Shown piece after piece: positions 32,477 through 55,307 of a stretch of 64,000 nt of DNA. The stretch's first letter is position 1. Every line of letters starts with the position of its first letter. The stretch lies in NCBI GenBank assembly GCA_964626845.1, contig CAZVGR010000007.1, forward strand, positions 4,820 through 68,819, read 5' to 3'. This DNA is from an uncultured Anaerolinea sp. (lineage in GTDB: Bacteria; Chloroflexota; Anaerolineae; JAAEKA01). The notes beneath the pieces are model-generated. The model saw only the letters and a list, made by a program, of their open reading frames with translations, was not told where the DNA came from and made no database searches. The position numbers and the translations under genes were made by a program.

Positions 32477-35400
32477 ATGCACGAACTAATGGCACGCACC
32501 TCTCGAAATGAACGACCGACCATCGGGGTCTTGGCAGGCTGGCAATATTATTGGACTGCCACACCATTGAGCTATCTCAGCCCTATCTATCGGGGGATTC
32601 GACTGGCCGCAGCCGAGCTGGGCTGCAACCTGCTGCTGGGCTGCGGCATGGGCGCGTCGGCCAGCGCGGCCGACTTGTTGCGCCCGGCCTGGCCCATTCC
32701 TTCGCCTGAGGTCGATTTCGTGCCTATCGGGCCGTGGAACACCGATGGCTTGATCGCAGTCAGCCCGTTGCATTCGGAGATCCGTTCGCGTTACATGCAA
32801 GAGGTGATGGCGGCCGGGCATCCAGTGGTCTTCGTCGGTTCAGGCGAACAAGGCCCCACGATCCTGGCGGACAACGCCAGCGGCATCATGCAGGCCATGC
32901 GCCACCTGGCCGAGCACGGCCACCGGCGTATCGCCTTCGTCGCGGGCAGCGTGGAGGACATGGAGGGTGACAGCGGCGACCGGCTGCGAGCTTATCGAGA
33001 CTCGCTGCGCACCTTTGATCTGGTGGACGATCCGCAGCTCGTGGCATTCGGCCAGCACACCTTCGGCTCAGGCTACACGGCGATGGAGCAGATCCTGCGC
33101 TCAGGGGCGCCGTTCGGCGCCGTGCTGGCCAGTAACGACGAGTCCGCGCTGGGGGCGATCCAGGCGTTGGCCGAGGCCGGCCGCCGCGTGCCGGACGACG
33201 TGGCCGTTATCGGCTTCGACGACCGCCCGGAGAGCTCGGTGCAGCAGCCTGCGCTGAGCAGCGTGCAGGTGCCGCTGTTCAAGATGGGCTACCGGGCGGT
33301 GGAGTTGCTGCTGCGCCGCATGGCTGGCAGGGCCGCGGTCGACGAACGGGTGCTGGCGCCCACGCGCCTGATCAGCCGCGAGTCGTGCGGCTGCGGCCGC
33401 AGCGCGGTGCTGGCCGACGTGCTGGACGCCACAGCCGCGCGCCTCAGGATCACAGCTAACGGCGCGCACCATTCCCGGCTGGCGCAGCGGATGGCGGCGG
33501 CAGTGCTGGCCGAGACCCAGGCGTTGGGCGAAGAGGAGACAGTCGCCCTGTGCCAACATTTGGTGGAAACGTTTACGGCCAGCGCGGCGCAGAACGACGC
33601 TGCCCGGTTTCAGCGCAGCCTGGACGAGGTGCTGCGCCAGGTTATTGCCCGCGGCGACGACGCGCATCTTTGGCAGGTGGCGATCTCGGTCCTGCGCGCC
33701 GAGCTGCCCGGCCTGCTGGCGACCATACCTGATCTAAATGGCCTCAATGTCGTGGAGGAGGGGCGCGAGATTCTCAACCAGGCGCGCATCACCATCAGCG
33801 CGGCGATGCGCCACCAGCATCGCCAGGTCGTCGTTGACCAGCGCTGGACCGGCGACCGTATCGGCCAGCTTACGGCCCAGTTGATCAACACCCTGGACGA
33901 AACGGAGGTCTACGACACGCTGGCGCAGGCCTTGCCGCAACTGGGTATTGACCTGGCCTGGGTGGCGCTGTTGGACGGCGAGGGCGATGATCCGGTGGCA
34001 TGGAGCGTGCTGCGCTCCGTCACCTCTCCTGGGCAAAGCGAACTGCGCTTGCCCAGCCGCGAGTTCCCGCCGTCAGATTGGGTGACGCAGGATGGCCCGT
34101 TCAGTCTGGCGCTGCTGCCGCTCATCGGCGGTCGGGGTCGGGCAGGCTACGTAGCATTGGGAACGGAGCAGTTGGAGCTGAACGGCGCCATCGCTCAGGA
34201 GCTGGCGGCGGCTGTCAACACTGCGCAGTTGTACCGCGAGGCAACAGAGGGACGGCGGCTGGCCGAGGAAGCCAGTCAGATGAAAAGCCGCTTCCTTTCG
34301 ACAGTCAGCCACGAGCTGCGCACACCTCTGAATCTGATTGTTGGGCTGACCGGTCTTTTGATCCAGCAGGATCACGACGACCTCCAGTTGCTGCCCGAAG
34401 CGCTGCGGGAGGATATGGAACGCATCCACGCTAACGCCCAACATCTTGGCGGCCTGATCGGCGACGTGCTGGATATGGCCAGCAGCGATGCAGGGCAGTT
34501 GCGGCTGACGCAGGAGTACGTAGACCTGGGGCAGGCGCTGCGTGTGGTGGCAGAGACCGGCAGACAAATGGCGGCCGACAAAGGGCTGGCCTGGCGGGCA
34601 GACTTGCCAGACTCCGGCCCCTGGGTGTGGGGTGATCGGCTGCGCCTGCGCCAGGTAGCCTTGAATCTGATCAGCAATGCGGTCAAGTTTACCGAGCGTG
34701 GCGAAGTGAGCCTGCTGATGAAGTCAGAAGGGGGAGTTGTCACGGTGGCCGTGAGCGACACCGGGCTGGGCATCCCGCCGGATGAGCAACAGACGATCTT
34801 CGAGGAGTTTCGTCGCTCGGAGCGCAGCATCCTGCGCAGCTATCGCGGCCTGGGATTGGGGCTGGCGATCTGCCAACGCCTGATTGGGCTGCACCAGGGA
34901 TCGATGGGGGTTTCTTCCAGCGGCGAAGAGGGCGCCGGATCGACCTTCTTTTTCACCCTGCCGGCTGTGCCAGCGCCAGTTGCTATACCCACACCGCCGG
35001 CTGCCCTGCCACTCGTCCGGCAGCGTGTTCTGGTGCTGACCCCACCGACTGGCGGCAGCCAACGGCTGCGAGAGCATTTGACCCAGCGCGGCTTTATGGT
35101 GCGCGTCGAGCCAGCAACCGACACCCAGAGCTGGCTGGCCCAGTTGCTGGCAGACCCGCCAGGCGCAGTAGTCTTGGATGTCAGCGCGGCGCCGAACCAT
35201 GGCTGGGATGCGTTGAAGGCGATTAAAGGCAACGCGGCGACGCGCAACATCCCGGTGCTGTTCTACGCAGCCGGAGGACAGGGCAGCTCGGTGATGGAGA
35301 TCGACTATCTCACCAAGCCGGTGGAGATGGCTGAGTTGACGCGGGCGCTGGACCAGCGCTGGTTGGTGGCTGGCGTTGATGCCGCCACGCGCACCTTCCT

Positions 35401-36106
35401 GGTGGTCGACGACGATCCCAACACCCTGGAGATGCATGCCCGCATTGTGCAGAACCATGCGCCTGGCAGCCGCGTGCTCAAGGCCCACACCGGCCGCGAG
35501 GCGCTGGGGCTGCTGGAGCAAGGTACGGTCGATCTGATGCTGCTGGATTTGATGATGCCAGAGATGGATGGATTCGCCGTGCTAGAAGCCATGCGAGAAC
35601 GGGAGACTATGCGGGATATCCCCGTGATCGTAGTCACCGGCCAGGTGCTGACCGAGGCAGAGATGGCGCGGCTCAACCAGGGCGTGGTGCGGGTGCTGAG
35701 CAAAGGGGTGTTTGACCTGGACGAAACCCTGGCGCAGGTCGATATGGCGTTGCAGCGACAGCAGAGGCTCAGCAGCGAGGCGCAGCGTCTGGTACGCAAG
35801 GCCATGGCCTATATTCAGCAGAACTACCAGGAAACGTTGACACGCCAGGACCTGGCGCGCTACGTGGGCATGAGCGACGATTACCTGACTTACTGCTTCC
35901 GCCAGGAACTGGGTCTTACGCCCATCGCCTACCTCAACCGCTATCGCATCACCCGGGCTAAGCGGCTGCTCAAGGAGAGCGACAGGACCATCACCCAGAT
36001 CGCGCTGGATGTGGGTTTTTCCGACAGCGGCTACTTTAGCCGTGTCTTCCGCCGGGAGATCGGCATGTCGCCCGATGGATATCGCCGCAGCGAGGGCGCT
36101 GTGTAA
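32477..36106 (+). CDS. Cytoplasmic hybrid regulator: LacI-type ligand-binding domain, GAF-like region, histidine kinase, two receiver-like domains, AraC HTH
   Basis: LacI/GalR core ('RPTIGVLAG...', 'HRRIAFVAG', 'AVLASNDESALGAIQAL', 'VIGFDD'). HisKA 'SRFLSTVSHELRTPLN' and HATPase 'SDTGLGIPPDEQ...GLGLGLAICQRL'. REC 'FLVVDDDPN...LLDLMMPEMDG'. AraC 'IAYLNRYRITRAKRLL...GFSDSGYFSRVFRREIG'. No TM segment seen. Confidence 0.85.
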   Translation: MHELMARTSRNERPTIGVLAGWQYYWTATPLSYLSPIYRGIRLAAAELGCNLLLGCGMGASASAADLLRPAWPIPSPEVDFVPIGPWNTDGLIAVSPLHSEIRSRYMQEVMAAGHPVVFVGSGEQGPTILADNASGIMQAMRHLAEHGHRRIAFVAGSVEDMEGDSGDRLRAYRDSLRTFDLVDDPQLVAFGQHTFGSGYTAMEQILRSGAPFGAVLASNDESALGAIQALAEAGRRVPDDVAVIGFDDRPESSVQQPALSSVQVPLFKMGYRAVELLLRRMAGRAAVDERVLAPTRLISRESCGCGRSAVLADVLDATAARLRITANGAHHSRLAQRMAAAVLAETQALGEEETVALCQHLVETFTASAAQNDAARFQRSLDEVLRQVIARGDDAHLWQVAISVLRAELPGLLATIPDLNGLNVVEEGREILNQARITISAAMRHQHRQVVVDQRWTGDRIGQLTAQLINTLDETEVYDTLAQALPQLGIDLAWVALLDGEGDDPVAWSVLRSVTSPGQSELRLPSREFPPSDWVTQDGPFSLALLPLIGGRGRAGYVALGTEQLELNGAIAQELAAAVNTAQLYREATEGRRLAEEASQMKSRFLSTVSHELRTPLNLIVGLTGLLIQQDHDDLQLLPEALREDMERIHANAQHLGGLIGDVLDMASSDAGQLRLTQEYVDLGQALRVVAETGRQMAADKGLAWRADLPDSGPWVWGDRLRLRQVALNLISNAVKFTERGEVSLLMKSEGGVVTVAVSDTGLGIPPDEQQTIFEEFRRSERSILRSYRGLGLGLAICQRLIGLHQGSMGVSSSGEEGAGSTFFFTLPAVPAPVAIPTPPAALPLVRQRVLVLTPPTGGSQRLREHLTQRGFMVRVEPATDTQSWLAQLLADPPGAVVLDVSAAPNHGWDALKAIKGNAATRNIPVLFYAAGGQGSSVMEIDYLTKPVEMAELTRALDQRWLVAGVDAATRTFLVVDDDPNTLEMHARIVQNHAPGSRVLKAHTGREALGLLEQGTVDLMLLDLMMPEMDGFAVLEAMRERETMRDIPVIVVTGQVLTEAEMARLNQGVVRVLSKGVFDLDETLAQVDMALQRQQRLSSEAQRLVRKAMAYIQQNYQETLTRQDLARYVGMSDDYLTYCFRQELGLTPIAYLNRYRITRAKRLLKESDRTITQIALDVGFSDSGYFSRVFRREIGMSPDGYRRSEGAV

Positions 36107-36660: not shown

Positions 36661-38103
36661 ATGTCTCGGAAACACCTGACCATCGTTGTGTCGATGCTTG
36701 TGCTGCTCAGCATGCTGCTGGCAGCCTGTGGCGGCGGCGCTGAGCCGACTGCGGCCCCGGCCCCGGCAGCTCCTGCAGCCGAAGCCCCTGCGGCTCCTGC
36801 CGCTGAAGCCCCTGCGGCCCCGGCGCCGGCGGCTGGCAGCCCTGTAACGATCCGCTGGTTCATCGGCTTGGGCGCCGGCGGCAACCCCGAGGAGATCGAG
36901 CGAGAAAAGGTCTTCGTCGAGGCCTTCAACGCCAAGTACGGCGACAAGTACAATCTGGTCATGGACGTCGTGCCCAACAACACGGCTTATGACGTGCTGA
37001 AGACCCAGATTGCCGCTGGCGACGTGCCCGACATCGTCGGCCCGGTCGGCGTGCGCGGCCTGGCCAGCTTCGAAGGCGCCTGGCTCGACCTCAATCCTTA
37101 CATTCAGGCTTCTGGCTTCGACCTGAGCGACTACGATCCGGCGCTGGTGGAGTTCTACAAGTTCGGCACCGACGCCCAGTTGTTCCTGCCGTTCTCGGTC
37201 TTCCCATCGGCGCTGTGGTACAACAAGGCCCTGTTCGACGAGGCCGGCATGGAATATCCGCCGCACCAGTGGGGCGCCCCCTATGCCGACGGCGACGAGT
37301 GGACCTGGGACAAGCTGCGCGAGCTGGCTATGATCCTGACCGTGGACGGCAACGGCAACGACGCCACTGAAGCAGGCTTCGATCCCAGAAACATCGTCCA
37401 GTTCGGCTACGACGCGCAGTGGCAAGACATCCGCGCTGACTGGAGCCATATCCACGCCGGCAGCTTCGTAGACGAGAACGGCAAGGCCTATGTGCCGGAC
37501 GTCTGGCGCACGGCTGCCAAGTGGTACTACGACGGCATGTTCGGCGACTACTTCATCCCCAACGACAGCTACGTCAACAGCGACCTGATGGCCCAAGGCA
37601 ACACCTTCGGTTCCGGCAACCTGGCCATGAACGCGGTCAACCTGTGGTTCACCTGCTGCACCGAGGGCGTAGTCTGGGACGTGGCAGCCATGCCGTCCTT
37701 CGATGGCAACCTCACCTCCAAGCTGCACGCCGACACCTTCGGCATTCTGCGGGCGGCCAAGAATCCCCAGGCCTCCTGGGAAGTCTACAGCCTGTTCATG
37801 GATGAGTTTGCCGGCGAACTGGCTGCTGTCTATGGCGGCTTCCCTGCCCGCCAGAGTCTGCAAGCAGACGCTCTGGCCGGCCTGCAGGAGCGCTTCCCTG
37901 GCGTAGACTTCCAGGTCTTCGTCGATGGCCTGGCCTATCCTGACGATCCCAGCCACGAGTCGGCGATGCCGAACTTCCTCAAGGCCAGCGATACTTACGG
38001 CGTTTTCGGCGCCAAGTATCAGAGCACGCCTGGTCTGGACATCGACAAGGAACTCGATGCCCTGGTCGTCGAGCTGCAAAAGGTCTTTGACGAAGTGCAG
38101 TAA
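36661..38103 (+). CDS. ABC sugar-transporter solute-binding lipoprotein
   Basis: Signal 'LSMLLAACGG', a Pro/Ala-rich tether (APAAEAPA x2), then family-1 SBP-like sequence. Confidence 0.85.
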   Translation: MSRKHLTIVVSMLVLLSMLLAACGGGAEPTAAPAPAAPAAEAPAAPAAEAPAAPAPAAGSPVTIRWFIGLGAGGNPEEIEREKVFVEAFNAKYGDKYNLVMDVVPNNTAYDVLKTQIAAGDVPDIVGPVGVRGLASFEGAWLDLNPYIQASGFDLSDYDPALVEFYKFGTDAQLFLPFSVFPSALWYNKALFDEAGMEYPPHQWGAPYADGDEWTWDKLRELAMILTVDGNGNDATEAGFDPRNIVQFGYDAQWQDIRADWSHIHAGSFVDENGKAYVPDVWRTAAKWYYDGMFGDYFIPNDSYVNSDLMAQGNTFGSGNLAMNAVNLWFTCCTEGVVWDVAAMPSFDGNLTSKLHADTFGILRAAKNPQASWEVYSLFMDEFAGELAAVYGGFPARQSLQADALAGLQERFPGVDFQVFVDGLAYPDDPSHESAMPNFLKASDTYGVFGAKYQSTPGLDIDKELDALVVELQKVFDEVQ

Positions 38104-41305: not shown

Positions 41306-44300
41306 ATGATACGCAAGACCATGCTTCTGTTTTCGCTTTTCCTGCTCATTGCCAGCATCGCATCGCCCTTTGCGATGTTTGCGCCAACCGCTGTTTCGGC
41401 GGCCCCTGCGGAACCGTGGCCCACCATCACTTTTGACTCGGATGCGGTCACCTACACCCTGACCGGCTTTGGCGGCGCTGAGGACTCGACTGTCGTGGTC
41501 GATCCCACCGATCCCGCCAACAATGTAGCCCGGGTGGTCAAGTCGGCGACGGCTCAGTTGTGGGCCGGGACCACGGTATCCACCGGCCCGAACAACACGG
41601 TTCCTCAGTTGCTGTTCACGGCTGACGACACGACCATGTCGGTGCGGGTCTGGTCGCCTGACGCGGGCATCCAGGTCCGGCTGAAGGTCGAGGACGCCGC
41701 GGACGGCAGCAAGTCGGTGGAGACCGAGGCGACGACCACGGTGGCGGCCGGCTGGGAGACGCTGACCTTCGACTTCGCCAACCCGGCGCCGGGCACCCAG
41801 CCGCTGAACCTGGGCTACACCTACAATCGGGCTTCCATCTTCTTCAACTTCGGCGTGCCTGGCTCCGTGGCCGGAGAGAAGATCTACTTCTTCGACGACG
41901 TCGCCTTCAGCGGCGGCACAGTCCCACCACCGCCGCCCCCGCCAGGCCAATGGCCCACCATCACCTTCGACTCGGATGCGGTCACCTACACCCTGACCGG
42001 CTTTGGCGGCGCTGAGGACTCGACCGTTGTGGTCGATCCCACCGACCCCGCCAACAACGTGGCCCGTGTGGTCAAGTCGGCGACGGCTGAGCTGTGGGCT
42101 GGGACCACGGTATCCACTGGCGCCAACCTGACGATACCGCAGTTGCTGTTCACGACTGAGACCACAACCATGACGGTGCGGGTTTGGTCGCCTGACGCGG
42201 GCATCCAGGTGCGGCTGAAGGTCGAGGATGCAGCAGACGGCAGCAAATCGGTGGAGACCGAGGCGACGACCACGGTGGCGACCGACTGGGAGACGTTGAC
42301 CTTCGACTTCGCCAACCCGGCGCCGGGCACCCAGCCGCTGAACCTGGGCTACACCTACAATCGGGCTTCCATCTTCTTCAACTTCGGCGTGCCTGGCTCC
42401 GTGGCCGGAGAGAAGATCTACTTCTTCGACGACGTCGCCTTCAGCGGCGGCACAGTCCCACCACCGCCGCCCCCGCCAGGCCAATGGCCCACCATCACCT
42501 TCGACTCGGATGCGGTCACCTACACCCTGACCGGCTTTGGCGGCGCTGAGGACTCGACCGTCGTGGTCGATCCCACCGATCCCACCAACAACGTGGCCCG
42601 GGTGGTCAAGTCGGCGACGGCCGAGCTGTGGGCTGGGACCACAGTGTCCACCGGCCCCAACCTGACCGTGCCAGCGCTGCCGTTCACGGCTGACGACACC
42701 ACCATGTCGGTGCGGGTCTGGTCGCCTGACGCGGACATCCAGGTCCGGCTAAAGGTCGAGGATGCAACGGACGGCAGCAAATCGGTGGAGACCGAGGCAA
42801 CGACCACCGTGGCGGGCGACTGGGAGACGCTGGTCTTCGACTTCGCTAACCCGGCAGCCGGCACCCAGCCCCTGAACCTGGGCTACACCTACGACAAGGC
42901 TTCCATCTTCTTCAACTTCGGCGTGCCTGGCGCTGTGGCCGGAGAGAAGATCTACTTCTTCGACGACGTCGCGTTCGGCGGCGCGCCGCCCCCACCGCCT
43001 GCCCCTGGAAAATCGGTCATCATCGACGACTTCGAGGATGGCTTGTTGCCCACGGGCACTGATCCTAACGGCATTGGCGTGGGCTTCATCACGGCCAACG
43101 CACCCGGCGCCAGCGTCGCCATCGCCATCACCGACGCGCCGCCTGCGCCCGTCCCCGGCGCGGCTGTGCCCAACAACGTGCTGCAAGAGGATCTGACCCT
43201 GGGCGTCGGCCAGTGGGCCGTGTTCGTCCACAACTTCACCAACGACGCGGCCGATGCCTGGGTGCCGCAAGACTGGACTTCGTACGAAGGCTTCAGCCTG
43301 TGGCTGTACGGCAACAACACCGGCGGCACGATCTTCCTGGACATCCTGGACAACCGCAACCCCGACTCCACCACCGACGACGCTGAGCGCTGGAGCGTTG
43401 ACATCCCCGACACCTTCAACGGCTGGCAGCACTTCCTGTTCACCTGGGACCAGTTCAACCGCAAGGACATCGGCAACGGCGCACCCAACGACGGCTTCAC
43501 CCTGACCGAGGTCCACGGCTACGCGGTCGGCGGCTATGGCAACGTCAACATGGGCAGCCAGAGCTACTTCATCGACGACGTGGGCCTGATCGTCCGCACC
43601 ACGATCATCGACGACTTCGAGGATGGCCTGTTGCCCACGGGCACTGATCCTAACGGCATTGGCGTGGGCTTCATCACGGCCAACGCACCCGGCGCCAGCG
43701 TCGCCATCGCCATCACCGACGCGCCGCCTGCGCCCGTCCCCGGCGCGGCTGTGCCCAACAACGTGCTGCAAGAGGATCTGACCCTGGGCGTCGGCCAGTG
43801 GGCCGTGTTCGTCCACAACTTCACCAACGACGCGGCCGATGCCTGGGTGCCGCAAGACTGGACTTCGTACGAAGGCTTCAGCCTGTGGCTGTACGGCAAC
43901 AACACCGGCGGCACGATCTTCCTGGACATCCTGGACAACCGCAACCCCGACTCCACCACCGACGACGCTGAGCGCTGGAGCGTTGACATCCCCGACACCT
44001 TCAACGGCTGGCAGCACTTCCTGTTCACCTGGGACCAGTTCAACCGCAAGGACATCGGCAACGGCGCACCCAACGACGGCTTCACCCTGACCGAGGTCCA
44101 CGGCTACGCGGTCGGCGGCTATGGCAACGTCAACATGGGCAGCCAGAGCTACTTCATCGACGACGTGGCGATCTTCGGCAACACTGGCGGCGGCGAGCAG
44201 CCGTTGCAGGTCCAGTTCAGCCGCAACTTCTACCAGGTGACCGAGGGCGACACGGCTGTGATCACCGTGACGCTCAACATGACCTCCACTGCGCCAGTCT

Positions 44301-46390
44301 CGATCAGCTACATCACCGTCGAGGGCTACGCCACGCCTGATCGCAACTACGTGCCCACCAGCGGCGAGGTAGTCATCGCACCCGGCGAGCTGGCGCAGAC
44401 CTTCACCGTGGCAACGATCCACGACGGCAAGCCCAGCGGCGAGCAGCGGCTGATGCTGAACCTGCGCAACCCCAACGGCGCCGACGCCGGCTTCCGGGTA
44501 CAGGCCATGCTCACCATCCTGGACATCGACCCCGTAAATCCGATGATGGTGGACGACTTCCAGGGCTTCCATCGCTTCGCCACTTCCGGCGATATCGCGC
44601 TGTCGATCACCGAGCTGGCGGCCGGCTCGGCTATGGCCCTGCCGGGGCAGATGTTCTACGAGGACGTGCTGACCGGCGTCTACGGCCCGGCCGGCGGCGC
44701 TGCACCCAGCTTCCTCCAGACCTTCCCTGTCAGCGAGGACTGGAGCGGCTACAACGGCCTGACCTTCTGGTACTACGGCAGCAACAGCGGCCAAGCGATG
44801 ACCGTCAACCTGCTGGACAACCAGACGACGACCACGGCCCAGACACCGCCCGACCAATGGGAACTGGTTTGGAGCGACGAGTTCGATGACCAGGCCGGCA
44901 TCGGCCCCAACCCGAATGTCTGGTCGCACGAAATCGGCGACGGCACGCTCAACAACATCCCCGGCTGGGGCAACAGCGAGTTCCAGTTCTACACGGACAG
45001 CCTGGACAACGCAGCCACTGACGGCGGCGGCAACCTGGCCATCACCCTGGACGAGGCTGATCCTGCCCAGGAGCTGCGCTGTTGGTACGGCCCATGCCGG
45101 TACACCTCTGCCCGCCTGATCTCGGCCAACAAGATCGAGGCTGAGTACGGACGTATCGAGTCCCGCATCCTGGTGCCCGATGGCCCAGCCGGCCTGTGGC
45201 CCGCCTTCTGGATGCTGGGCACCAACATCGGCGAGGTCGGCTGGCCGCAGAGCGGCGAGATTGACATCATGGAGTACGTCAGCCGCAACCCCTACGAGGT
45301 GTTCGGCACGATCCACGGCCCTGGCTACTCTGGCGGCGCGGCCTTCGGCAACACCTACACCTTCCCGCAGCCGGTGGCCGAGGACTATCACACCTTCTCG
45401 GTGGAGTGGTCGCCCGACCAGATCCTCTGGTACGTGGACGACATCCTCTACCACAGCGCTACTCCGGCCAACGTGGCGCCTAACGAATGGGTCTTCAACC
45501 ATCCCTTCTTCCTGATCCTGAACCTGGCGATCGGCGGCAACTTTGGCGGCACGATCAGCCCTGACATGACCTTCCCGCAGCAGGCGCTGGTGGACTACGT
45601 GCGGGTCTATCAGAAGCCCAACAACTCGGAGCGCTTCGAGGCCAGCTTCGTCGATAACTTCAGCGGCTGGCGCCAGGTGACTGTGCCCTTCTCGGCCTTC
45701 ACCCGCAGCGCGCAGCAGCCAGCCGGCGCACCCAACGACGGCCTGGGCCTGAACCAGGTCTGGGGCTACGGCATCACCCTGCCGGCAAACAGCAGCGGCA
45801 CGTTCCACATGGACCAGGTGCAACTGGCCCGCATCCCGACCGTGCAGCGCTCGCGGCGCTTCAACGTCGATCAGGATACCTTCATCAACGGCGCGCAGCC
45901 GGCTGTGGCCTTCGGCAGCGCCCAGAGCATGTGGGTTGGCTTCTTCGATCAACTGCGCCCAGTGGTGCATGCGCCCATCGCAGGAATCCCTAACGACGCA
46001 GAGATCGACCTGGCCTACCTGTACCTCTACGTGTTCGAGGGCCGCGGCTTCACGCAGTGGGCTAACTCGGTCATCGAAAACGTCTCTGCTCACGCCGTCA
46101 CCACGCCTTGGGTGTCCGACACCGCCACCTGGTGGACGCCGTGGACCATGCCTGGCGGCGACTACGGCCCGGCCGTGGGCGCCAACCACATCGGCTCCGG
46201 CAAGATCAACACCTGGCTGCGGCTGGATGTGACCGAGGCCGTGCGCGACATCGTCAGCAGCGGCGTCAACCACGGCATCCTGCTAACGTCCAGCGACAAC
46301 CGCGGCGTGCGCTATGGGTTGGCCGCCTCAGAGTACTTCGACCCCTCGAAGAACGGCTACATCCGCGTGTACTTCCGCACTGTAGACTGA
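41306..46390 (+). CDS. Secreted multidomain GH16 beta-1,3(4)-glucanase (laminarinase type)
   Basis: Domain order: signal peptide; 3 x 178-aa module; 2 x 195-aa CBM-like module; Calx-beta-like segment ('QVQFSRNFYQVTEGDTAVITVTLN'); GH16 catalytic domain; DNRLRE-like C-terminal domain ('TSSDNRGVRYG'). The GH16 domain carries 'WSDEFD' and the catalytic motif 'GEIDIMEY'. Confidence 0.9.
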   Translation: MIRKTMLLFSLFLLIASIASPFAMFAPTAVSAAPAEPWPTITFDSDAVTYTLTGFGGAEDSTVVVDPTDPANNVARVVKSATAQLWAGTTVSTGPNNTVPQLLFTADDTTMSVRVWSPDAGIQVRLKVEDAADGSKSVETEATTTVAAGWETLTFDFANPAPGTQPLNLGYTYNRASIFFNFGVPGSVAGEKIYFFDDVAFSGGTVPPPPPPPGQWPTITFDSDAVTYTLTGFGGAEDSTVVVDPTDPANNVARVVKSATAELWAGTTVSTGANLTIPQLLFTTETTTMTVRVWSPDAGIQVRLKVEDAADGSKSVETEATTTVATDWETLTFDFANPAPGTQPLNLGYTYNRASIFFNFGVPGSVAGEKIYFFDDVAFSGGTVPPPPPPPGQWPTITFDSDAVTYTLTGFGGAEDSTVVVDPTDPTNNVARVVKSATAELWAGTTVSTGPNLTVPALPFTADDTTMSVRVWSPDADIQVRLKVEDATDGSKSVETEATTTVAGDWETLVFDFANPAAGTQPLNLGYTYDKASIFFNFGVPGAVAGEKIYFFDDVAFGGAPPPPPAPGKSVIIDDFEDGLLPTGTDPNGIGVGFITANAPGASVAIAITDAPPAPVPGAAVPNNVLQEDLTLGVGQWAVFVHNFTNDAADAWVPQDWTSYEGFSLWLYGNNTGGTIFLDILDNRNPDSTTDDAERWSVDIPDTFNGWQHFLFTWDQFNRKDIGNGAPNDGFTLTEVHGYAVGGYGNVNMGSQSYFIDDVGLIVRTTIIDDFEDGLLPTGTDPNGIGVGFITANAPGASVAIAITDAPPAPVPGAAVPNNVLQEDLTLGVGQWAVFVHNFTNDAADAWVPQDWTSYEGFSLWLYGNNTGGTIFLDILDNRNPDSTTDDAERWSVDIPDTFNGWQHFLFTWDQFNRKDIGNGAPNDGFTLTEVHGYAVGGYGNVNMGSQSYFIDDVAIFGNTGGGEQPLQVQFSRNFYQVTEGDTAVITVTLNMTSTAPVSISYITVEGYATPDRNYVPTSGEVVIAPGELAQTFTVATIHDGKPSGEQRLMLNLRNPNGADAGFRVQAMLTILDIDPVNPMMVDDFQGFHRFATSGDIALSITELAAGSAMALPGQMFYEDVLTGVYGPAGGAAPSFLQTFPVSEDWSGYNGLTFWYYGSNSGQAMTVNLLDNQTTTTAQTPPDQWELVWSDEFDDQAGIGPNPNVWSHEIGDGTLNNIPGWGNSEFQFYTDSLDNAATDGGGNLAITLDEADPAQELRCWYGPCRYTSARLISANKIEAEYGRIESRILVPDGPAGLWPAFWMLGTNIGEVGWPQSGEIDIMEYVSRNPYEVFGTIHGPGYSGGAAFGNTYTFPQPVAEDYHTFSVEWSPDQILWYVDDILYHSATPANVAPNEWVFNHPFFLILNLAIGGNFGGTISPDMTFPQQALVDYVRVYQKPNNSERFEASFVDNFSGWRQVTVPFSAFTRSAQQPAGAPNDGLGLNQVWGYGITLPANSSGTFHMDQVQLARIPTVQRSRRFNVDQDTFINGAQPAVAFGSAQSMWVGFFDQLRPVVHAPIAGIPNDAEIDLAYLYLYVFEGRGFTQWANSVIENVSAHAVTTPWVSDTATWWTPWTMPGGDYGPAVGANHIGSGKINTWLRLDVTEAVRDIVSSGVNHGILLTSSDNRGVRYGLAASEYFDPSKNGYIRVYFRTVD
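41417..43018 (+). repeat. 3 x 534-bp tandem coding repeat (putative glycan-binding modules with poly-Pro linkers)
   Basis: TGGCCCACCATCAC... recurs at 41417, 41951 and 42485. The copies differ by scattered substitutions. Confidence 0.9.
43019..44188 (+). repeat. 2 x 585-bp tandem coding repeat, almost identical at DNA level
   Basis: ATCATCGACGACTTCGAGGATGG... occurs at 43019 and 43604. The antisense track ORFs 42952..43500 and 43564..44085 differ at a single residue over the shared part. Confidence 0.9.
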
Positions 46391-46398
46391 TCGAACCT

Positions 46399-46435
46399 GG
46401 GGTGGGGCGCAAAGGCTTCGCATTGCGCCCCACCC
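46399..46435 (+). terminator. GC-rich hairpin after the GH16 gene
   Basis: GGGGTGGGGCGCAA-N10-TTGCGCCCCACCC. No clear T-tract follows. Confidence 0.5.
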
Positions 46436-46474
46436 GTCACGAATCTGACCAAGGTTCGCCGGTGTAAGTGCATA

Positions 46475-46537
46475 GTTCGTAGTGGCGACTTCAGTCGCTT
46501 CGGGGCCACCGAGACGACTGAAGTCGTCACTACGAAC
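46475..46537. repeat. REP-like palindrome (GTTCGTAGTGGCGACTTCAGTCG...CGACTGAAGTCGTCACTACGAAC)
   Basis: About 23-bp arms with one or two mismatches and a 16-nt loop. Confidence 0.7.
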
Positions 46538-46584
46538 GGCCTGACATCGACAAAGCCAGCGCACTTGACAATGAGGCCCTTCTC

Positions 46585-47922
46585 TTGCAACTCCACCACC
46601 ACTGCACAGCCCAACACACCCCCTATCGCCTGACCGAGCTTCCGATTCCAGCCATCGACGCCGCCAGCGCTGAGATGGCATCGATCTTTGTCGACACCAC
46701 CGTGCGTTATCAGGAGATCGAGGGCTTCGGCGGCGCATTCACCGAAGCGGCCGCGCTGACCTTCTTCAAGCTGCCGGCCGAGCGCCAGGCTGAGGTTCTC
46801 GCGGCCTACTTCGACCCCACCCACGGCCACGGCTACACCCTCGGCCGCACGCACATCAACAGTTGCGACTTCTCGCTGGGCAACTACGCCTATGCCGAGG
46901 TGGACGGCGACGTGGAGCTGCGCCGCTTCTCCATCGAGCGCGACCGCCAGGCGCTGATCCCGCTGATCCATGCAGCCCAGCAGACCGCCGGCCGGCCGCT
47001 CAAGTTGCTGGCCTCGCCCTGGAGCCCGCCGGCCTGGATGAAGACCAACGGCGACATGTGCCACGGCGGCCAGCTCAAGCCCGAATACCGCGCAGCCTGG
47101 GCCGAGTACTACTGCCGCTATGTGCGCGCCTACGAGCAGGAGGGCATCCCCATCTGGGCGTTGACGGTGCAGAACGAGCCAGAGGCGGTGCAGGTCTGGG
47201 AGTCTTGCATCTTCAGCGGCGAAGCGGAGCGCGACTTTGTGCGCGACTACCTGGGACCGGCGCTGGCGCAGGCCGGCCTGGCCGACGTGCATTTGCTGAT
47301 CTGGGACCACAACCGCGATCGCATGGTTGAGCGGGCCAGCGCCGTGCTCAGCGACCCTGAAGCGGCAAGGTATGTTTGGGGCGTGGCCTTTCACTGGTAT
47401 GTGGTCGACTGCTTCGACAACGTGCAGCGGGTGCATGATGCTTTTCCCGACAAAAAGCTGCTCTTCACCGAGGGCACGCAGGAAGGCGGCCCGCACCTGG
47501 GCGAGTGGTCCATGGCCGAGCGCTACGCTCGCTCGATCATCAACGACCTCAACCGCTGGACGGTAGGCTGGATCGACTGGAACCTGCTGCTGGATACCAC
47601 GGGCGGACCGAACCATGTGGGCAACCTGTGCAGCGCGCCCATCCTGGCCGACACGGAGACCGGCGAGCTGCATTATCAGAGCAGCTACTACGCCATCGGC
47701 CACTTTGCCCGTTTCATCCAGCCCGGCGCGCAGCGCGTGCTCTGCGCCACAACGCACGACTTGTTGGAAGCAGCCGCTTTCGTCAACCCCGCTGGACAAA
47801 CCATCGTCGTGCTGCTCAATCGTTCGGACCAAATGGGCCAGGTGACACTGGCGATAAACAACGAACGGGCCGTCGTCGATTGTCCGGCCCATTCCATTTC
47901 AACTTTCCAGGTTGTATCATGA
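46585..47922 (+). CDS. GH30 glycoside hydrolase (glucosylceramidase / beta-1,6-glucanase type); start uncertain
   Basis: Motifs 'YQEIEGFGGAFTEAAA', 'SPWSPPAWMKTNG', 'WALTVQNEPE' and 'LFTEG'. The only upstream in-frame start is TTG at 46585, and there is no signal peptide. Confidence 0.8.
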   Translation: MQLHHHCTAQHTPYRLTELPIPAIDAASAEMASIFVDTTVRYQEIEGFGGAFTEAAALTFFKLPAERQAEVLAAYFDPTHGHGYTLGRTHINSCDFSLGNYAYAEVDGDVELRRFSIERDRQALIPLIHAAQQTAGRPLKLLASPWSPPAWMKTNGDMCHGGQLKPEYRAAWAEYYCRYVRAYEQEGIPIWALTVQNEPEAVQVWESCIFSGEAERDFVRDYLGPALAQAGLADVHLLIWDHNRDRMVERASAVLSDPEAARYVWGVAFHWYVVDCFDNVQRVHDAFPDKKLLFTEGTQEGGPHLGEWSMAERYARSIINDLNRWTVGWIDWNLLLDTTGGPNHVGNLCSAPILADTETGELHYQSSYYAIGHFARFIQPGAQRVLCATTHDLLEAAAFVNPAGQTIVVLLNRSDQMGQVTLAINNERAVVDCPAHSISTFQVVS

Positions 47923-50900
47923 CGACCAACACCAAAACCGCTATCTGGATCGGCAACACGCCGCTGATCGATGAAGCTGCACCGGTCACCGGGGAGTACG
48001 TGCAACTTCTTGGCGAGGAATACTACCGCATCGCCCACGTCGATCAAATGCCCCCGTTTTTCATGAGCCTGGTGAGCGGCGCCAACCACTGGCTGTTCAT
48101 CGCCAGCAACGGCGGGCTCACGGCTGGGCGCACCAACTCCGACTCGGCGCTTTTTCCCTATGAGACGGTCGACAAGATTCAGGCGCACGGCGAGCAGATC
48201 GGCAGCAAGACCATCCTGCGAGTCACGCTCAGCGGCCGCACCCACCTGTGGGAGCCGTTTTCAGAGCGCTATGCCGGCGTCTATCGCCGTGAACGCCACC
48301 TGTACAAGAACGTCTATGGCAACAAGCTGATTTTCGAGGAGATTAACCACGACTTGCAACTGGCGCTGCGCGTGGCCTGGCGCACCGGCGACCGCTTCGG
48401 CTTCATCAGAAGCTGCTGGCTGGAAAACCTGGGCGACAGCACGTGCCACGTGGAGCTGCTCGACGGCGTGCAGAACATCCTGCCTTTTGGCGCCACCAGC
48501 CAGTTGCAGAACGGCATGAGCAACCTGCTCGACGCTTACAAACGCAACGAGATGGAACCCGCCAGCGGGCTGGGCATTTTCACCCTCAGCGCTACGCTGA
48601 CCGACCGCGCCGAGCCCAGCGAGTCGCTCAAGGCGACCATGGCCTGGCAGGTAGGGCTGGACGACGTCCGCTATCTGCTCTGCGCCGATCAAATCGACGC
48701 CTTTCGCCGCGGCCACACCGTCACAACCGAACAAGACATATGCGGCAAGCCAGGCGCATATCTGGCCAGCGCTGCGATCGACCTGCCGCCAGGCCAGACC
48801 CACCGCTGGCACATCGTGGCCGACGTCAACCAGGACAGCGCGGCCGTCAGCCGGCTGACGCAGTTTCTGCGCCAGGAAAAAGCCAGCATCGAGGCGCAGA
48901 TCGAAGCAGACATCGCCCGCGGCACTGAGGAGTTGGTGCGCTTCGTGGCCTCGGCCGACGGCCTGCAGCTCACCGCCCAGGAAACAACCACCGCCCACCA
49001 TTTCGCCAACGTCCTGTTCAACATCATGCGCGGCGGCATCTTCGTGGACAACTACCAGGTAGACCGGGACGACCTGAGCGACTTCGTGCGCGTGCGCAAC
49101 CGCGTTGTCTGGGCCAACCATGCGCAATGGTTTGCTGACCTGCCGGCCAAACTCTCCATTCAAGACCTCTATGCGCGCGCCAGCGCGGACGGCGCAGCAG
49201 ATATGATCCGCCTGTGCTACGAGTACCTGCCTTTGACCTTCAGCCGGCGGCACGGCGACCCCAGCCGGCCCTGGAACCACTTCTCCATCAACGTCACCAA
49301 ACCCGATGGCTCAGCCCGCCTGGACTACCAGGGCAACTGGCGCGACATCTTCCAGAACTGGGAGCCGCTGGCGCTCAGCTTCCCCGGTTTCGTGGAGGGC
49401 ATGGTAGCCAAGTTCCTGAATGCGACTACGGTAGACGGCTACAACCCCTACCGGATCACGCGCGACGGCATCGAGTGGGAAACGCCTGAGCCGCACAACC
49501 CCTGGTCCAATATCGGTTACTGGAACGACCACCAGATCATCTACCTGCTCAAACTGCTGGAGATCGTGGCGCAGGTCCATCCTGATGCCCTGTCTGGCCT
49601 GTGGAACCACCCCGTATTCTCCTACGCCAACGTTCCCTACCGCCTGCGCCCCTATCCGCAGATGCTGGCCGACTGGTACAACACCATTGAGTTCGATTAC
49701 GAGCAAGAAGAGGCAATCGCCGCGGCAGTTGCCGCCATGGGCACAGACGGACGGCTGCTGCGCAACGCCGCTGGGGCCGTTGTGCATGTCACACTGACCG
49801 AAAAGCTGCTGGTGTTGCTGCTGGCCAAGCTGACCAACCTGGCGCCAGAGGGCGGCATCTGGATGAACACGCAGCGCCCGGAGTGGAACGACGCCAACAA
49901 CGCGCTGGTAGGCAAGGGCCTGTCTATCGTCACTGCTGGCTATCTGCGCCGCTTCATCGCCTTCTGGCAGGCGCAGATCGACGCAGCTCAGGCAGCCGCG
50001 CTGGCCGTCAACCCGGCCCTGGCCGATCTGTTCGCTGCCGTGTACGGCATCCTGCGTGCGCACGAGCCGCAACTGGCCAGCGCATTCAGCGATCAGGCGC
50101 GGCGGGCGATGATGGACGAGCTGGGCATGGCGGCCACGGCCTACCGCACGCGCGTCTATCAAGACGGCGTGCCAGCGGCGCGGGTCGAACTGGACGGCCA
50201 GACGCTGCATGACTTCCTGGCGCTGGCGCAACGCTACGTAGAGCACACGCTGCGCGCCAATCAGCGCCCCGACGGCATGTTCCACAGCTACAACATCCTG
50301 CGCTTGCACGACGAGGGCGTTGCGATCGACAACCTCTACCTGATGTTGGAGGGACAGGTGGCGCTGCTGTCGTCAGGCATGTTGACGCCAGAGGAGGCGC
50401 TGGCAGTGCTGCACAGCCTGCGCCACAGCGATCTCTATCGGCCGGATCAGCATTCCTACATGCTCTATCCCAACCGCCAGTTGCCCGGTTTCTTGCAGAA
50501 GAACCAGGTAGCGGCAGAGGCAGTGGCCGGCTCTGCGCTGGTCGCCGCGCTGACGGCCGTCAACGATCGGCGCTTGCTGATCTGCGACGACGCGGGCGTG
50601 TATCACTTCAACGGCAGCTTCCGCAACGCGGGCGACGTCGCCCGCACGTTGGATGAGCTGGGCCAGGAGCCGGCCTTTGCGCCGCTGGTGGCGGCAGAGC
50701 GCGGCCTGGTGCTCGACCTGTTTGAAGCCACCTTCGACCACCGGGCCTTCACCGGCCGCTCTGGCACCTTCTTCGCCTACGAGGGGCTGGGCAGCATCTA
50801 CTGGCACATGGTATCGAAACTGCTGCTGGCCGCGCAGGAGTGCTACCAACAGGCGCTGGCAGCCAACACAGACCCCGCCGTCACAGCCGCGCTGGCCGCA

Positions 50901-51389
50901 GCCTACTATGACATCCGGCAGGGGCTGGGCTTCAACAAATCGCCAGCCGAGTACGGCGCGTTCCCCACCGATCCTTATTCGCACACGCCGATGGGCGCTG
51001 GCGCGCGCCAGCCAGGCATGACCGGCCAGGTCAAAGAGGAGGTCCTGACGCGCTTCGGCGAGCTGGGCGTGTCTGTGCAGGATGGGGTGCTGTGCTTTGC
51101 GCCGACCATGCTGCACAAGGATGAATTCCTGCGTGCGCCGGGCGAGTTTGCCTACACCGACGTAGCGCACCAGCCGAAGACTCTGTCACTCCCGCCCGAT
51201 CTGCTGACCTTCACCGTTTGCCAAACCCCTGTGGTCTACGTCTGCGGCAACACGCCACAGATGAAGGTGACATTTGCCGATGGGCAATGCGTGACTGTGC
51301 CAGGGAGCCGCCTGGATTTGGCAACTTCCCAGCACATCTTCGAGCGCGATGGCTGGGTGCAGATGGTTCGGGTTACAGTTCCTATCTAA
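47919..51389 (+). CDS. Large cytoplasmic GH94-clan-like protein, candidate glycan phosphorylase (GH149/GH161-like?)
   Basis: 1157 aa, with ATGA overlapping the GH30 stop. 'QRPEWNDANNAL', 'GNWRDIFQNWEP', 'IYWHMVSK' and 'RQPGMTGQV' parallel GH94 motifs by eye. The family assignment is not verified. Confidence 0.55.
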   Translation: MTTNTKTAIWIGNTPLIDEAAPVTGEYVQLLGEEYYRIAHVDQMPPFFMSLVSGANHWLFIASNGGLTAGRTNSDSALFPYETVDKIQAHGEQIGSKTILRVTLSGRTHLWEPFSERYAGVYRRERHLYKNVYGNKLIFEEINHDLQLALRVAWRTGDRFGFIRSCWLENLGDSTCHVELLDGVQNILPFGATSQLQNGMSNLLDAYKRNEMEPASGLGIFTLSATLTDRAEPSESLKATMAWQVGLDDVRYLLCADQIDAFRRGHTVTTEQDICGKPGAYLASAAIDLPPGQTHRWHIVADVNQDSAAVSRLTQFLRQEKASIEAQIEADIARGTEELVRFVASADGLQLTAQETTTAHHFANVLFNIMRGGIFVDNYQVDRDDLSDFVRVRNRVVWANHAQWFADLPAKLSIQDLYARASADGAADMIRLCYEYLPLTFSRRHGDPSRPWNHFSINVTKPDGSARLDYQGNWRDIFQNWEPLALSFPGFVEGMVAKFLNATTVDGYNPYRITRDGIEWETPEPHNPWSNIGYWNDHQIIYLLKLLEIVAQVHPDALSGLWNHPVFSYANVPYRLRPYPQMLADWYNTIEFDYEQEEAIAAAVAAMGTDGRLLRNAAGAVVHVTLTEKLLVLLLAKLTNLAPEGGIWMNTQRPEWNDANNALVGKGLSIVTAGYLRRFIAFWQAQIDAAQAAALAVNPALADLFAAVYGILRAHEPQLASAFSDQARRAMMDELGMAATAYRTRVYQDGVPAARVELDGQTLHDFLALAQRYVEHTLRANQRPDGMFHSYNILRLHDEGVAIDNLYLMLEGQVALLSSGMLTPEEALAVLHSLRHSDLYRPDQHSYMLYPNRQLPGFLQKNQVAAEAVAGSALVAALTAVNDRRLLICDDAGVYHFNGSFRNAGDVARTLDELGQEPAFAPLVAAERGLVLDLFEATFDHRAFTGRSGTFFAYEGLGSIYWHMVSKLLLAAQECYQQALAANTDPAVTAALAAAYYDIRQGLGFNKSPAEYGAFPTDPYSHTPMGAGARQPGMTGQVKEEVLTRFGELGVSVQDGVLCFAPTMLHKDEFLRAPGEFAYTDVAHQPKTLSLPPDLLTFTVCQTPVVYVCGNTPQMKVTFADGQCVTVPGSRLDLATSQHIFERDGWVQMVRVTVPI

Positions 51390-51410
51390 GCCATCACTGT
51401 TCAACTACCA

Positions 51411-51454
51411 GCGCCGGGCACTTGAGTCCACTATCAGTGACAAGTGCCCGGCGC
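51411..51454. repeat. Hairpin GCGCCGGGCACTTG-N16-CAAGTGCCCGGCGC after the stop of 47919..51389
   Basis: 14-bp perfect arms. The arm motif is shared with 32311-32375. Confidence 0.65.
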
Positions 51455-51679
51455 CGCAATAGTGACGCCGAGACAACCTTACCGCGAGCTGGGGACAGAG
51501 GGTTGCTGGCCGCGATCGTTTTTGACTTTACAGCCAGCGATTGCCGTGGTATGATGGAGCTATCGTGCCGTGGTGTACTCTGGCTGCGGCAAAAGTCCAA
51601 TTCATCGCAGACACCGCGCAGGGGCAATGGGCATTGGCCCCCATAGCAGGGCCAACACAACGCGAAAGGAAGGTCTCAA

Positions 51680-52900
51680 ATGGAACGCTCTCAATGGACA
51701 ACGCTCTGCCTGACGCTGCTGCTGGCAGGGCTGCTTGCGCTGGGTTCCCCCTTGGCTGCTTCGGCGGCAGGACACGCTCAGAGCAGCGCTGCGCAGCAAG
51801 GCCCCAGCACGCCCGGCCGCTCGGACAGAAACGTCATCTCTGTCCCTGGCGTTTTCTCTTTGTGGTTGGGGCAGGGGCTGAGCACGCGCAACAACATGTT
51901 GACGGTCGACGGCGCAGAGATTGACCTGCCGGCCCTGAATGCCACTGCCACCGTCGATGGCTTTAGCTTCAGCCTGCGGGACAGCTCCTATAGCTGGGAT
52001 GCCATCACTGTGACCCAGGTCGGTCCCAGGGAAAGCGACGCGCTGACCATCGCCGATACCCGCATGGTGGTGCAAGGGCCGGCGACAAACTTCAGCACCG
52101 ACCTCTCGACGCGCATCGAGCTAAACCCCAGTCCCGAAGTGCAAGCCAGCGCCACAGTTGGCTTGAGCTTCGATGGGCTGACCAGCCAGGCTGAGCTGGC
52201 AGTGGCTGACGGCAGCGCCCAAGTGGCTGCGGGCCCAGCCACGATCACGGTGCAAGGGCTGAACGCGGGCGGCGGCGCGTTCAGCGTCGACGCGGCGCAG
52301 GTGATGTTCCCCGAAGCTGAGACGGGCGTGCGGGTCGATGGCTTCACCGTTATCGATGGCAGTCCCTCGTGGCAGGCGTTGGCCTGGTATGGCCGCGAGT
52401 TCAACCTGGGCGACGTGGTCACGCTGTCCGACAACCTGGTGGTGGTCCCGGGCTCAGCCGCCGGCGACACACGGGCCGGCGGCGCAACCACCACCTTCAC
52501 GGTCAACGTGGGCGAGCTGGGCCAGACCGGCGGTCAACTGGTCCTCATGACCGATCCGGCCACCGGCCAGCCGGCGCTAATGCTGCGCAACGGCAGCGCC
52601 ATGCTGGGGGCGGCCGGCTGGAGCGTGGCCGCAAGCGGGATCAACGTTGGGCCCAGCGGCGCGGCTGTCGATACAGTCACGCTGATTGTCGAGCCTTTGG
52701 GGGTGCAGGCCCAGGTGACCGGCCTCGAAGCGACTGCAGGAGCCGGCGCCAGCTTCGACCAGACCAGGATCCTTTACCTGCCGCCCCAGAACGGCGCCAG
52801 CCGCACCGTAGCCGGCTTCGAGCTGGTCATCAGCAGCACGCAGGCCGGCTACGTGGTGACGACGACGACGCTGCTGCCGACGGCGACGCGAACGGAATAA
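51680..52900 (+). CDS. Hypothetical secreted Ala/Gly/Thr/Val-rich protein
   Basis: Signal 'LCLTLLLAGLLALGSPLAASAAG'. 406 aa with no recognised domain. Confidence 0.6.
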   Translation: MERSQWTTLCLTLLLAGLLALGSPLAASAAGHAQSSAAQQGPSTPGRSDRNVISVPGVFSLWLGQGLSTRNNMLTVDGAEIDLPALNATATVDGFSFSLRDSSYSWDAITVTQVGPRESDALTIADTRMVVQGPATNFSTDLSTRIELNPSPEVQASATVGLSFDGLTSQAELAVADGSAQVAAGPATITVQGLNAGGGAFSVDAAQVMFPEAETGVRVDGFTVIDGSPSWQALAWYGREFNLGDVVTLSDNLVVVPGSAAGDTRAGGATTTFTVNVGELGQTGGQLVLMTDPATGQPALMLRNGSAMLGAAGWSVAASGINVGPSGAAVDTVTLIVEPLGVQAQVTGLEATAGAGASFDQTRILYLPPQNGASRTVAGFELVISSTQAGYVVTTTTLLPTATRTE

Positions 52901-52926
52901 CTGGCCCGTAGCGCGTCACACATATT

Positions 52927-52972
52927 GCGAAGATGCCATCACGGTTTCCGGAACTCGTGATGGCATCTTCGC
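52927..52972 (+). terminator. 17-bp perfect hairpin after 51680..52900
   Basis: GCGAAGATGCCATCACG-N12-CGTGATGGCATCTTCGC. Confidence 0.55.
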
Positions 52973-53135
52973 GCTGAAACCAGGGCAATCAGCGGCGGTT
53001 CGATTCTTCAAACTGATAGACGGTGATTTGGGTCAACCATAGTAGCTAGCATTGAGCATGCTGCTCCATGTTTTCCTGCGTCGCGATGTCACGACAAATG
53101 ACGAAGCCAACGGTCCAAATTGGCCTTTCGCTGCT

Positions 53136-53390
53136 TCACCTACTCGCACCCTCGCTGATCCACCCGCGCAACAGCGCAGGCCGGTTGATCTCCGTGGTGC
53201 GATAACCAGGGCGGTAGGGCTGGTAGACGTATTCCAGATTGGACGCCCGGTAGTGGACCTCGACCACCTGGATCGGTATCTCACCGTTGCTGGTGTGTGG
53301 CCCTGTGACCACGGCGTCGAACTCAATCTGCTTGCCGGACACGAAGACTTTGTCCCCTGTTCGCAAGGATCGGAATTCCGAATCGGTCAT
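53136..53390 (-). CDS. Hypothetical 84-aa protein
   Basis: 'MTDSEFRSLRTGDKVFVSGKQIEFDAVV...'. Its start lies 4 nt after the stop of 53395..53670. It was split out of the longer track ORF 53136..53939. Confidence 0.5.
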   Translation of the reverse strand: MTDSEFRSLRTGDKVFVSGKQIEFDAVVTGPHTSNGEIPIQVVEVHYRASNLEYVYQPYRPGYRTTEINRPALLRGWISEGASR

Positions 53391-53394
53391 AGTG

Positions 53395-55224: not shown

Positions 55225-55307
55225 AGTATCTCCACTTCTGTTCCGTGTATTCTGGCCAGCACCTATCAACTGGATTGGGTGAAAACCAGTAAAAGATGCT
55301 AAAAGGC

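Follow-up and report, generated by a model that had tools for sequence, protein, structure and literature searches.

A predicted beta-1,3-glucan phosphorylase of family GH149 in a putative laminarin utilization operon of an uncultured Chloroflexota bacterium

Introduction

A stretch of 64,000 nucleotides from an uncultured Anaerolinea sp. (GenBank assembly GCA_964626845.1, contig CAZVGR010000007.1, positions 4,820 to 68,819 of the forward strand), referred to here as the window, carries a large gene at positions 47919-51389 (+). By its sequence, the product of this gene is a clear-cut member of glycoside hydrolase (GH) family 149, and not of GH161, of GH94 or of a new family. The protein is predicted to be a cytoplasmic inverting phosphorylase acting on beta-1,3-glucans (laminari-oligosaccharides) and to be the last enzyme of a laminarin utilization operon, a reading to which a probability of about 0.88 can be given. 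This reading is based on the family membership, the kept active site, the activities of all the characterized GH149 enzymes and the operon context. The source of the DNA, whose G+C content ranges from 56 to 67% along the window, is an Anaerolineae-type Chloroflexota bacterium.

Family Assignment

CAZy families are defined by sequence, and the similarity of the protein to characterized members of GH149 extends over its full length. The NCBIfam equivalog NF058639, named "1,3-beta-D-glucan phosphorylase, GH149 family," is matched with 1614.8 bits, for a curated cut-off of 1150, and residues 21-1154 lie on positions 3-1133 of the 1134 positions of the profile. The best match to a protein of solved structure is 6HQ6/6HQ8 (E=0, residues 17-1154); these entries are described as a "bacterial beta-1,3-oligosaccharide phosphorylase" and correspond to Pro_7066, an enzyme that has been both crystallized and biochemically characterized (PMC6771811). 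The alignment with Pro_7066, reassembled from the printed alignments, contains 534 identities in 1140 columns (47%) and 7 gap columns. The domains of this enzyme include an N-terminal beta-sandwich, a helical linker and a jelly roll at the C-terminus (PMC6771811). With the domain boundaries taken from the same work, every domain of Pro_7066 is covered in the window protein, as judged by sequence homology alone, at 28-49% identity and with few gaps, and this includes the GH149-specific insertions Dom1 and Dom2.

A preliminary description of this DNA, made from the letters alone, had proposed a beta-1,3-glucan phosphorylase of the GH94 clan, belonging either to GH149 or to GH161, and had added that the protein could represent a further family. 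The GH149 equivalog match, the kept active-site residues and the operon context bear out the first part of this proposal, with the activity as a prediction, and of the two families named, it is GH149 that stands. The GH161 sequence 9QQK_A and the similar 9H8V_A (1039 residues, deposited as a cellobiose phosphorylase) are matched only in three short stretches with E ~1e-13, in contrast to the E=0 obtained for GH149; GH161 was therefore rejected as the family of this protein, its similarity being weak and in pieces. As for GH94, neither of its Pfam models (PF17167 and PF06165) matches the protein, while the two GH94 proteins of the window match both of them with E-values from 1e-80 to 1e-146.

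The Gene and Its Start Codon

The frame at 47919-51389 (+) is open, has no internal stop and translates into 1156 aa followed by the stop codon. The uninterrupted reading frame of the preliminary description is thus real, and its length of 1157 aa included the stop. In the mechanically made list of open reading frames (ORFs), the same frame runs further upstream to a GTG at 47505. The ATG at 47919 is favored over this GTG because the homologues from other genomes align from residues 1-9, because the NF058639 profile begins at residue 21, and because of the overlap with the preceding GH30 gene. The junction between the two genes reads ...gtatcATGAcgacc, and the ATG of the phosphorylase gene (47919-47921) overlaps the TGA of the GH30 gene (47920-47922) in the sequence ATGA, the coupling that had already been noticed. 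Four related loci also have a GH30 gene upstream of the phosphorylase gene, and the ATGA overlap is kept in three of them (L001, L002, and L012; not L036).

On inspection, the N-terminus of the GH149 protein lacks a hydrophobic signal-like segment and no signal peptide was seen, which points to a cytoplasmic location. The exact protein is already present in public collections (NCBI and Logan), where it forms a singleton cluster at 90% identity.

Active Site and Motifs

The active-site residues of Pro_7066 are R470, D471, W651, N652, D653, E951 and H959 (PMC6771811). W651, N652 and D653 belong to the catalytic loop, in which the aspartate is the predicted catalytic residue; R470 and D471 take part in the recognition of the sugar 1-phosphate, E951 makes a contact that mimics the binding of a sugar hydroxyl, and H959 is involved in phosphate recognition (PMC6771811). 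Once the numbering of the PDB chain is corrected for its 19-residue tag, all seven residues map to identical residues in the window protein, namely R475, D476, W656, N657, D658, E955 and H963. The seven are invariant in 79 of 79 aligned sequences, which comprise the window protein and 78 homologues translated from genome loci. In this way the catalytic loop, the RD motif, the glutamate and the histidine of GH149 are all found in the protein. The codons of R475-D476, which form the RD motif of the sugar-1-phosphate (-1) subsite and correspond to Pro_7066 R470/D471, lie at 49341..49346 (+). Those of the catalytic loop W656-N657-D658, in which D658 is the predicted general acid corresponding to D653, lie at 49884..49892 (+), and those from E955 to H963 (within YEGLGSIYWH), the counterparts of E951 and H959, at 50781..50807 (+). 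In addition, T1035, located in the sequence GMTGQ (codon 51021..51023, +), is a candidate equivalent of the phosphate-site threonine of GH94 (T731 in cellobiose phosphorylase); this position is occupied by T or S in 78 of the 79 sequences.

The preliminary description had paired by eye four strings of the protein with strings of the two GH94 enzymes of the window, and each of the quoted strings does occur once, in the protein to which it was ascribed. Three of the pairings fall on the RD, WND and His sites of Pro_7066: 'GNWRDIFQNWEP' holds the RD motif (GNWRD), 'QRPEWNDANNAL' holds the WND catalytic loop (EWND), and 'IYWHMVSK' holds the phosphate-site histidine (YWH). These three motifs are structurally conserved between GH149 and GH94 (PMC6771811). 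The fourth pairing, of 'RQPGMTGQV' (GMTGQ) with 'NSWLTGTAAW' (WLTGT), is plausible. In the 802-aa GH94 protein of the window, the histidine of 'FNHTQGW' is H644 and the threonine of 'SWLTG' is T709; from the alignment offsets, these residues align with positions 644/709 of the Vibrio chitobiose phosphorylase (1V7V) and 666/731 of cellobiose phosphorylase (3RRS). Since H666 and T731 are phosphate-site residues of cellobiose phosphorylase, H644 and T709 fall on the phosphate-site pair and the fourth pairing gains its plausibility. The His and the Thr are 72 residues apart in GH149 and 65 in GH94.

The overall similarity to the GH94 enzymes of the window is indeed low, as had been remarked. A comparison by hhalign of the 79 GH149 sequences with the aligned pair of window GH94 proteins, a profile of two sequences only, gave nothing in the catalytic domain, even under relaxed settings, and its sole match was N-terminal and non-significant (probability 2.8%). 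This null result agrees with the statement that GH149 and GH94 have no significant overall sequence similarity (PMC6771811). The motif resemblance between the two families by itself has no statistical support and carries little weight.

The Putative Laminarin Utilization Operon

The genes preceding the phosphorylase gene on the same strand would form with it a laminarin (beta-1,3-glucan) utilization operon, in which the GH149 gene is the last and with which it would be co-transcribed. Its position downstream of a secreted GH16 laminarinase and a sugar ATP-binding cassette (ABC) importer, already pointed out in the preliminary description, is confirmed by domain matches and by the signal-like and lipobox-containing N-termini of the corresponding proteins. 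Type I GH149 clusters have been defined as those that combine an ABC cassette, a phosphorylase and a regulator (Kuhaudomlarp et al. 2018; PMC5827456), and the cluster of the window corresponds to this type, with GH149, ABC components and a regulator gene together on one strand.

The candidate regulator (32477..36106, +) is a 1209-aa hybrid protein in which Pfam recognizes a periplasmic-binding domain, a histidine kinase (HisKA/HATPase), a receiver and an AraC-type HTH domain. Its gene lies upstream of that for the binding protein, 554 bp away, a position from which the hybrid sensor may regulate the laminarin operon. Several Chloroflexota loci have weak relatives of it (33-37% identity) in the vicinity of GH149, frequently encoded on the opposite strand.

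The importer is represented by a lipoprotein sugar-binding component of the CUT1 type (36661..38103, +; LLAAC lipobox), recognized by weak PDB (5K2Y, 2.7e-8) and NCBIfam matches, and by two permeases (38240-39217 and 39221-40300, both +) with the PF00528 (BPD_transp_1) domain, similar to UgpA/UgpE, GlcT/GlcU and MalF/MalG. Copies of the binding protein with 43-51% identity occupy the same position in five of the related loci (L006, L008, L018, L027, and L045). Between the binding-protein gene and the permeases, right behind the former, lies a strong hairpin at 38117-38147 (+), with 14 pairs (9 of them G-C) and a run of T after it; it may serve as an attenuating terminator and so favor the expression of the binding protein over that of the permeases. 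The 1-kb gap between the second permease and the GH16 gene contains a small membrane protein with a DUF1269 match (1.2e-13; 40374-40874, +).

The GH16 enzyme is a putative secreted endo-beta-1,3-glucanase (laminarinase) of 1694 aa (41306..46390, +). It has a signal-peptide-like N-terminus, a GH16 domain whose nearest matches are solved laminarinases (3AZX, 8.7e-71), and Calx-beta, CBM11-like and DNRLRE/CBM96 modules. The protein is unusually large for a laminarinase: the ~1200 residues that precede the GH16 domain have only a Calx-beta match and spurious short matches, and the CBM11-like and DNRLRE/CBM96 modules are mostly C-terminal to it.

The gene coupled to that of the phosphorylase encodes a GH30 beta-glycosidase (46675..47922, +; PF02055 4.7e-83, PF17189), whose start is uncertain between the ATG at 46675 and the TTG at 46585. 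Its N-terminus has no signal-like sequence, in line with a predicted cytoplasmic location. The closest solved proteins are Salmonella SrfJ (2WNW, 2.3e-105), human glucosylceramidase (9.5e-86) and then 5NGK (1.4e-54), which is also deposited as a glucosylceramidase. Against the endo-1,6-beta-glucanase equivalog, the protein reaches 253 bits, below the cut-off of 700.

Past the GH149 gene, after 290 bp, there is a gene for a secreted 406-aa protein (51680-52900, +) rich in Ala, Gly, Thr and Val, with a signal-peptide-like N-terminus and without any Pfam or NCBIfam match. A copy of it with 64% identity lies just downstream of GH149 in the closest relative (L001). A hairpin at 51501-51517 and a promoter-like site at 51527-51555, both downstream of the GH149 gene, are suggestive and nothing more.

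Relatives and Distribution

Relatives were taken from a species-representative genome collection, and synteny was assessed by tblastn of the window proteins against 80 loci. The GH149 genes most similar to that of the window, with 54-83% identity, belong to Anaerolineae, Caldilineales, Ardenticatenales and Promineifilaceae, all of them Chloroflexota, and the nearest homologue among these loci is 83% identical. The sequences from Bacteroidota, Actinomycetota, Verrucomicrobiota and other groups show 47-53% identity. Many Chloroflexota loci have the genes arranged as binding protein, permease, permease, GH16 and GH149, and the layout of ABC components with GH149 is found again in both Chloroflexota and Actinomycetota loci. 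A GH30 gene stands directly upstream of the phosphorylase gene in the closest loci, the same four in which the junction was compared.

GH149 was first described mainly from Bacteroidetes, Proteobacteria and euglenids (PMC5827456), and in the early literature Gram-negative bacteria and euglenids appear as its main sources (PMC5827456, PMC6484121). The Chloroflexota genes extend this early distribution, and current curated models already recognize such genes.

Proposed Pathway

According to the preferred reading, the secreted, CBM-decorated GH16 laminarinase would cut beta-1,3-glucan outside the cell, and the lipoprotein binding protein and the two permeases, energized by an ATPase encoded elsewhere, would import the resulting oligosaccharides. 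In the cytoplasm, the coupled GH30 enzyme would probably strip beta-1,6 branches or handle residual glucosides. The GH149 enzyme would then use inorganic phosphate to remove glucose units stepwise from the non-reducing end, down to glucose, each step giving alpha-D-glucose 1-phosphate and a glucan one unit shorter. In the predicted active site, D658 would act as the general acid, R475, D476 and E955 would hold the glucosyl unit, and H963, probably together with T1035, would hold the phosphate. Glucose 1-phosphate could enter glycolysis via phosphoglucomutase, which would save one ATP per linkage.

This assignment provides a probable function for a large gene without any Pfam match, and it would complete the laminarin pathway in an uncultured Anaerolineae-type Chloroflexota bacterium, with secreted GH16, ABC import, and cytoplasmic GH30 and GH149. 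Since there is a sizeable set of syntenic Chloroflexota GH149 loci, these filamentous bacteria may make use of the ATP-saving phosphorolysis of beta-1,3-glucans. From an applied point of view, the protein is a further candidate catalyst for obtaining beta-1,3-gluco-oligosaccharides from glucose 1-phosphate.

Strength of the Assignment and Alternative Explanations

Several observations weigh against the proposed function or its setting. With 47% identity to Pro_7066, the preference for chain length or branches could have shifted, and the surface oligosaccharide-binding site of that enzyme is only partly kept. No Pfam model covers the protein: a scan at E<=1 returned no family, the GH94 models included. 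This blank is explained by the fact that no GH149 model is among the Pfam matches, and not by novelty. A single-sequence AlphaFold2 model was unusable, with a mean predicted local distance difference test (pLDDT) of 34.7 and a predicted template modeling score (pTM) of 0.26, and the fold was therefore taken from the homology to the crystal structure. With respect to the operon, a search of the whole window in six frames for the sugar-type Walker A and LSGGQ patterns of an ABC ATPase found none, so that the ATPase of the importer is presumably encoded elsewhere; most GH161 clusters likewise lack an ABC ATPase (PMC6484121). Finally, a promoter and terminator scan of positions 36000-53500 gave counts not above the shuffled expectation, and the extent of the operon is for this reason deduced from the spacing and strand of the genes.

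The alternative that survives best, although it is quite unlikely, is that of a GH149 enzyme with a natural substrate other than linear beta-1,3-gluco-oligosaccharides, for example branched beta-1,3/1,6 or mixed beta-1,3/1,4 oligosaccharides, the disaccharide alone or another beta-1,3-linked sugar. The moderate identity to the characterized Pro_7066 speaks for it, as does the fact that the window protein is more similar to the Chloroflexota sequences than to those of other phyla and that the characterized GH149 enzymes include none from this group. The surface-site residues, which are unlike those of Pro_7066, and the tight GH30 coupling, which hints at branched substrates, point in the same direction. 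On the other hand, the score is far above the curated equivalog cut-off, the -1 subsite and the phosphate site have the same residues as in Pro_7066, the secreted enzyme encoded nearby in the operon is a GH16 of the laminarinase type, and every characterized GH149 enzyme acts on beta-1,3-glucans.

A related suggestion, which is offered tentatively and with low confidence, is that the Chloroflexota GH149 and the coupled glucosylceramidase-like GH30 form a module that first debranches and then phosphorolyses imported branched beta-1,3/1,6 oligosaccharides. Such a module might differ from the three characterized GH149 enzymes in chain-length or branch tolerance, or in the loss of the surface site.

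It is even less probable that the enzyme works in the synthetic direction, building an intracellular beta-1,3-glucan reserve from glucose 1-phosphate, or that it is a hydrolase or transglycosylase. The reactions of GH149 enzymes are reversible, Pro_7066 and EgP1 yield products up to a degree of polymerization of 11-12 in vitro, and the euglenid members occur in organisms that store paramylon (PMC5827456). Nevertheless, the layout with a secreted endo-glucanase, an importer and GH30 is a catabolic one and is conserved across Chloroflexota, the phosphate-site histidine is kept, and no glucan-storage genes were seen nearby. A new family within clan GH-Q, separate from GH94, GH149 and GH161, had seemed conceivable in view of the missing Pfam match and of the lack of a significant profile alignment with the window GH94 proteins; it can be dismissed, since the Pfam blank reflects the missing GH149 model and the protein matches both NF058639 (above its cut-off) and Pro_7066 (6HQ6, E=0, 47% identity) over the full length. 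A beta-1,3-glucan phosphorylase of family GH149 that works in the direction of degradation is thus the reading preferred here.

Other Genes of the Window

The first half of the window (766-14902, 22540-25407, and 27896-30192; all +) is a chitin/N-acetylglucosamine utilization region, with genes for GH4, YdjC, a BadF-type kinase, GH94, GH3, GH20, a GH39/44-like protein, a second GH94, a GH18 with DUF5060, an amidohydrolase and a SIS-domain protein. The two GH94 enzymes, whose presence had been noted before and is supported by Pfam, correspond to the ORFs 3381-6740 and 12494-14902. The product of the second one, of 802 aa, is closest to the N,N'-diacetylchitobiose phosphorylases (8BOU, 2.6e-231). 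On account of this match and of the surrounding chitin region, the GH94 enzymes of the window probably serve chitobiose and not laminaribiose. The ORF 3381-6740 (+), of 1119 aa, overlaps that of the BadF-type kinase (3151-4137) and its supersandwich domain starts at residue 272; the gene probably begins far downstream of the mechanical start.

Downstream of the glucan genes, there are a TPR-repeat protein (53800-55362, -) and a pair formed by a LuxR-type response regulator and a HisKA_3 histidine kinase (55681-58814, +), which appear to be unrelated to the glucan operon.

Comparison with Known Systems

The three characterized GH149 enzymes, Pro_7066, EgP1 and GH149_H, are all beta-1,3-glucan phosphorylases that yield alpha-glucose 1-phosphate (PMC8950772, PMC5827456). 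Pro_7066, a bacterial enzyme of metagenomic origin that takes laminaritriose down to glucose (PMC6484121), shares with the window protein, at 47% identity, the same four domains plus Dom1 and Dom2, and the identical RD, WND, Glu and His residues. The two are also of similar size, the domains of Pro_7066 being numbered to residue 1156 (PMC6771811) and the window protein having 1156 aa. They differ in phylum, since the loci closest to Pro_7066 are those of Chitinophagales and Chitinophaga (58-60% identity), and not of Chloroflexota. Dom1 is the most diverged part, with 31% identity and 8 gap columns, and the surface oligosaccharide-binding residues E990/Y993/E994 of Pro_7066 are A/Y/D in the window protein.

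EgP1 from Euglena gracilis, the founding member of GH149, was compared by description: it belongs to the same CAZy family, with the same predicted inverting phosphorolysis to alpha-glucose 1-phosphate (PMC5827456). It is a eukaryotic enzyme with a preference for short acceptors, while no chain-length preference is seen with Pro_7066 (PMC5827456).

GH161, represented by PapP of Paenibacillus polymyxa and by the solved structure 9QQK, belongs to the same clan, GH-Q, and acts on the same class of substrates as GH149. Its operons, which combine GH16 and an ABC importer with GH30 or beta-glucosidases, follow a logic similar to that of the window operon (PMC6484121). The sequence similarity to the window protein is weak but significant, and the three stretches matched at E ~1e-13 include the RD region; the GH161-like chain matched here carries WYD in place of the WND of GH149. 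In terms of products, GH161 stops at the disaccharide while GH149 goes on to glucose (PMC6484121).

GH94, which includes the laminaribiose phosphorylase PsLBP and the cellobiose and chitobiose phosphorylases, shares with GH149 the clan and the fold, composed of a beta-sandwich, a helical linker, an (alpha/alpha)6 barrel and a jelly roll. The characterized GH94 enzymes of beta-1,3 specificity, the laminaribiose phosphorylases, act on the disaccharide. The GH149 protein of the window is ~350 aa longer than the 802-aa GH94 protein and carries the insertions Dom1 and Dom2. The catalytic aspartate in WND, the RD motif and the phosphate-site histidine are common to both families (PMC6771811).

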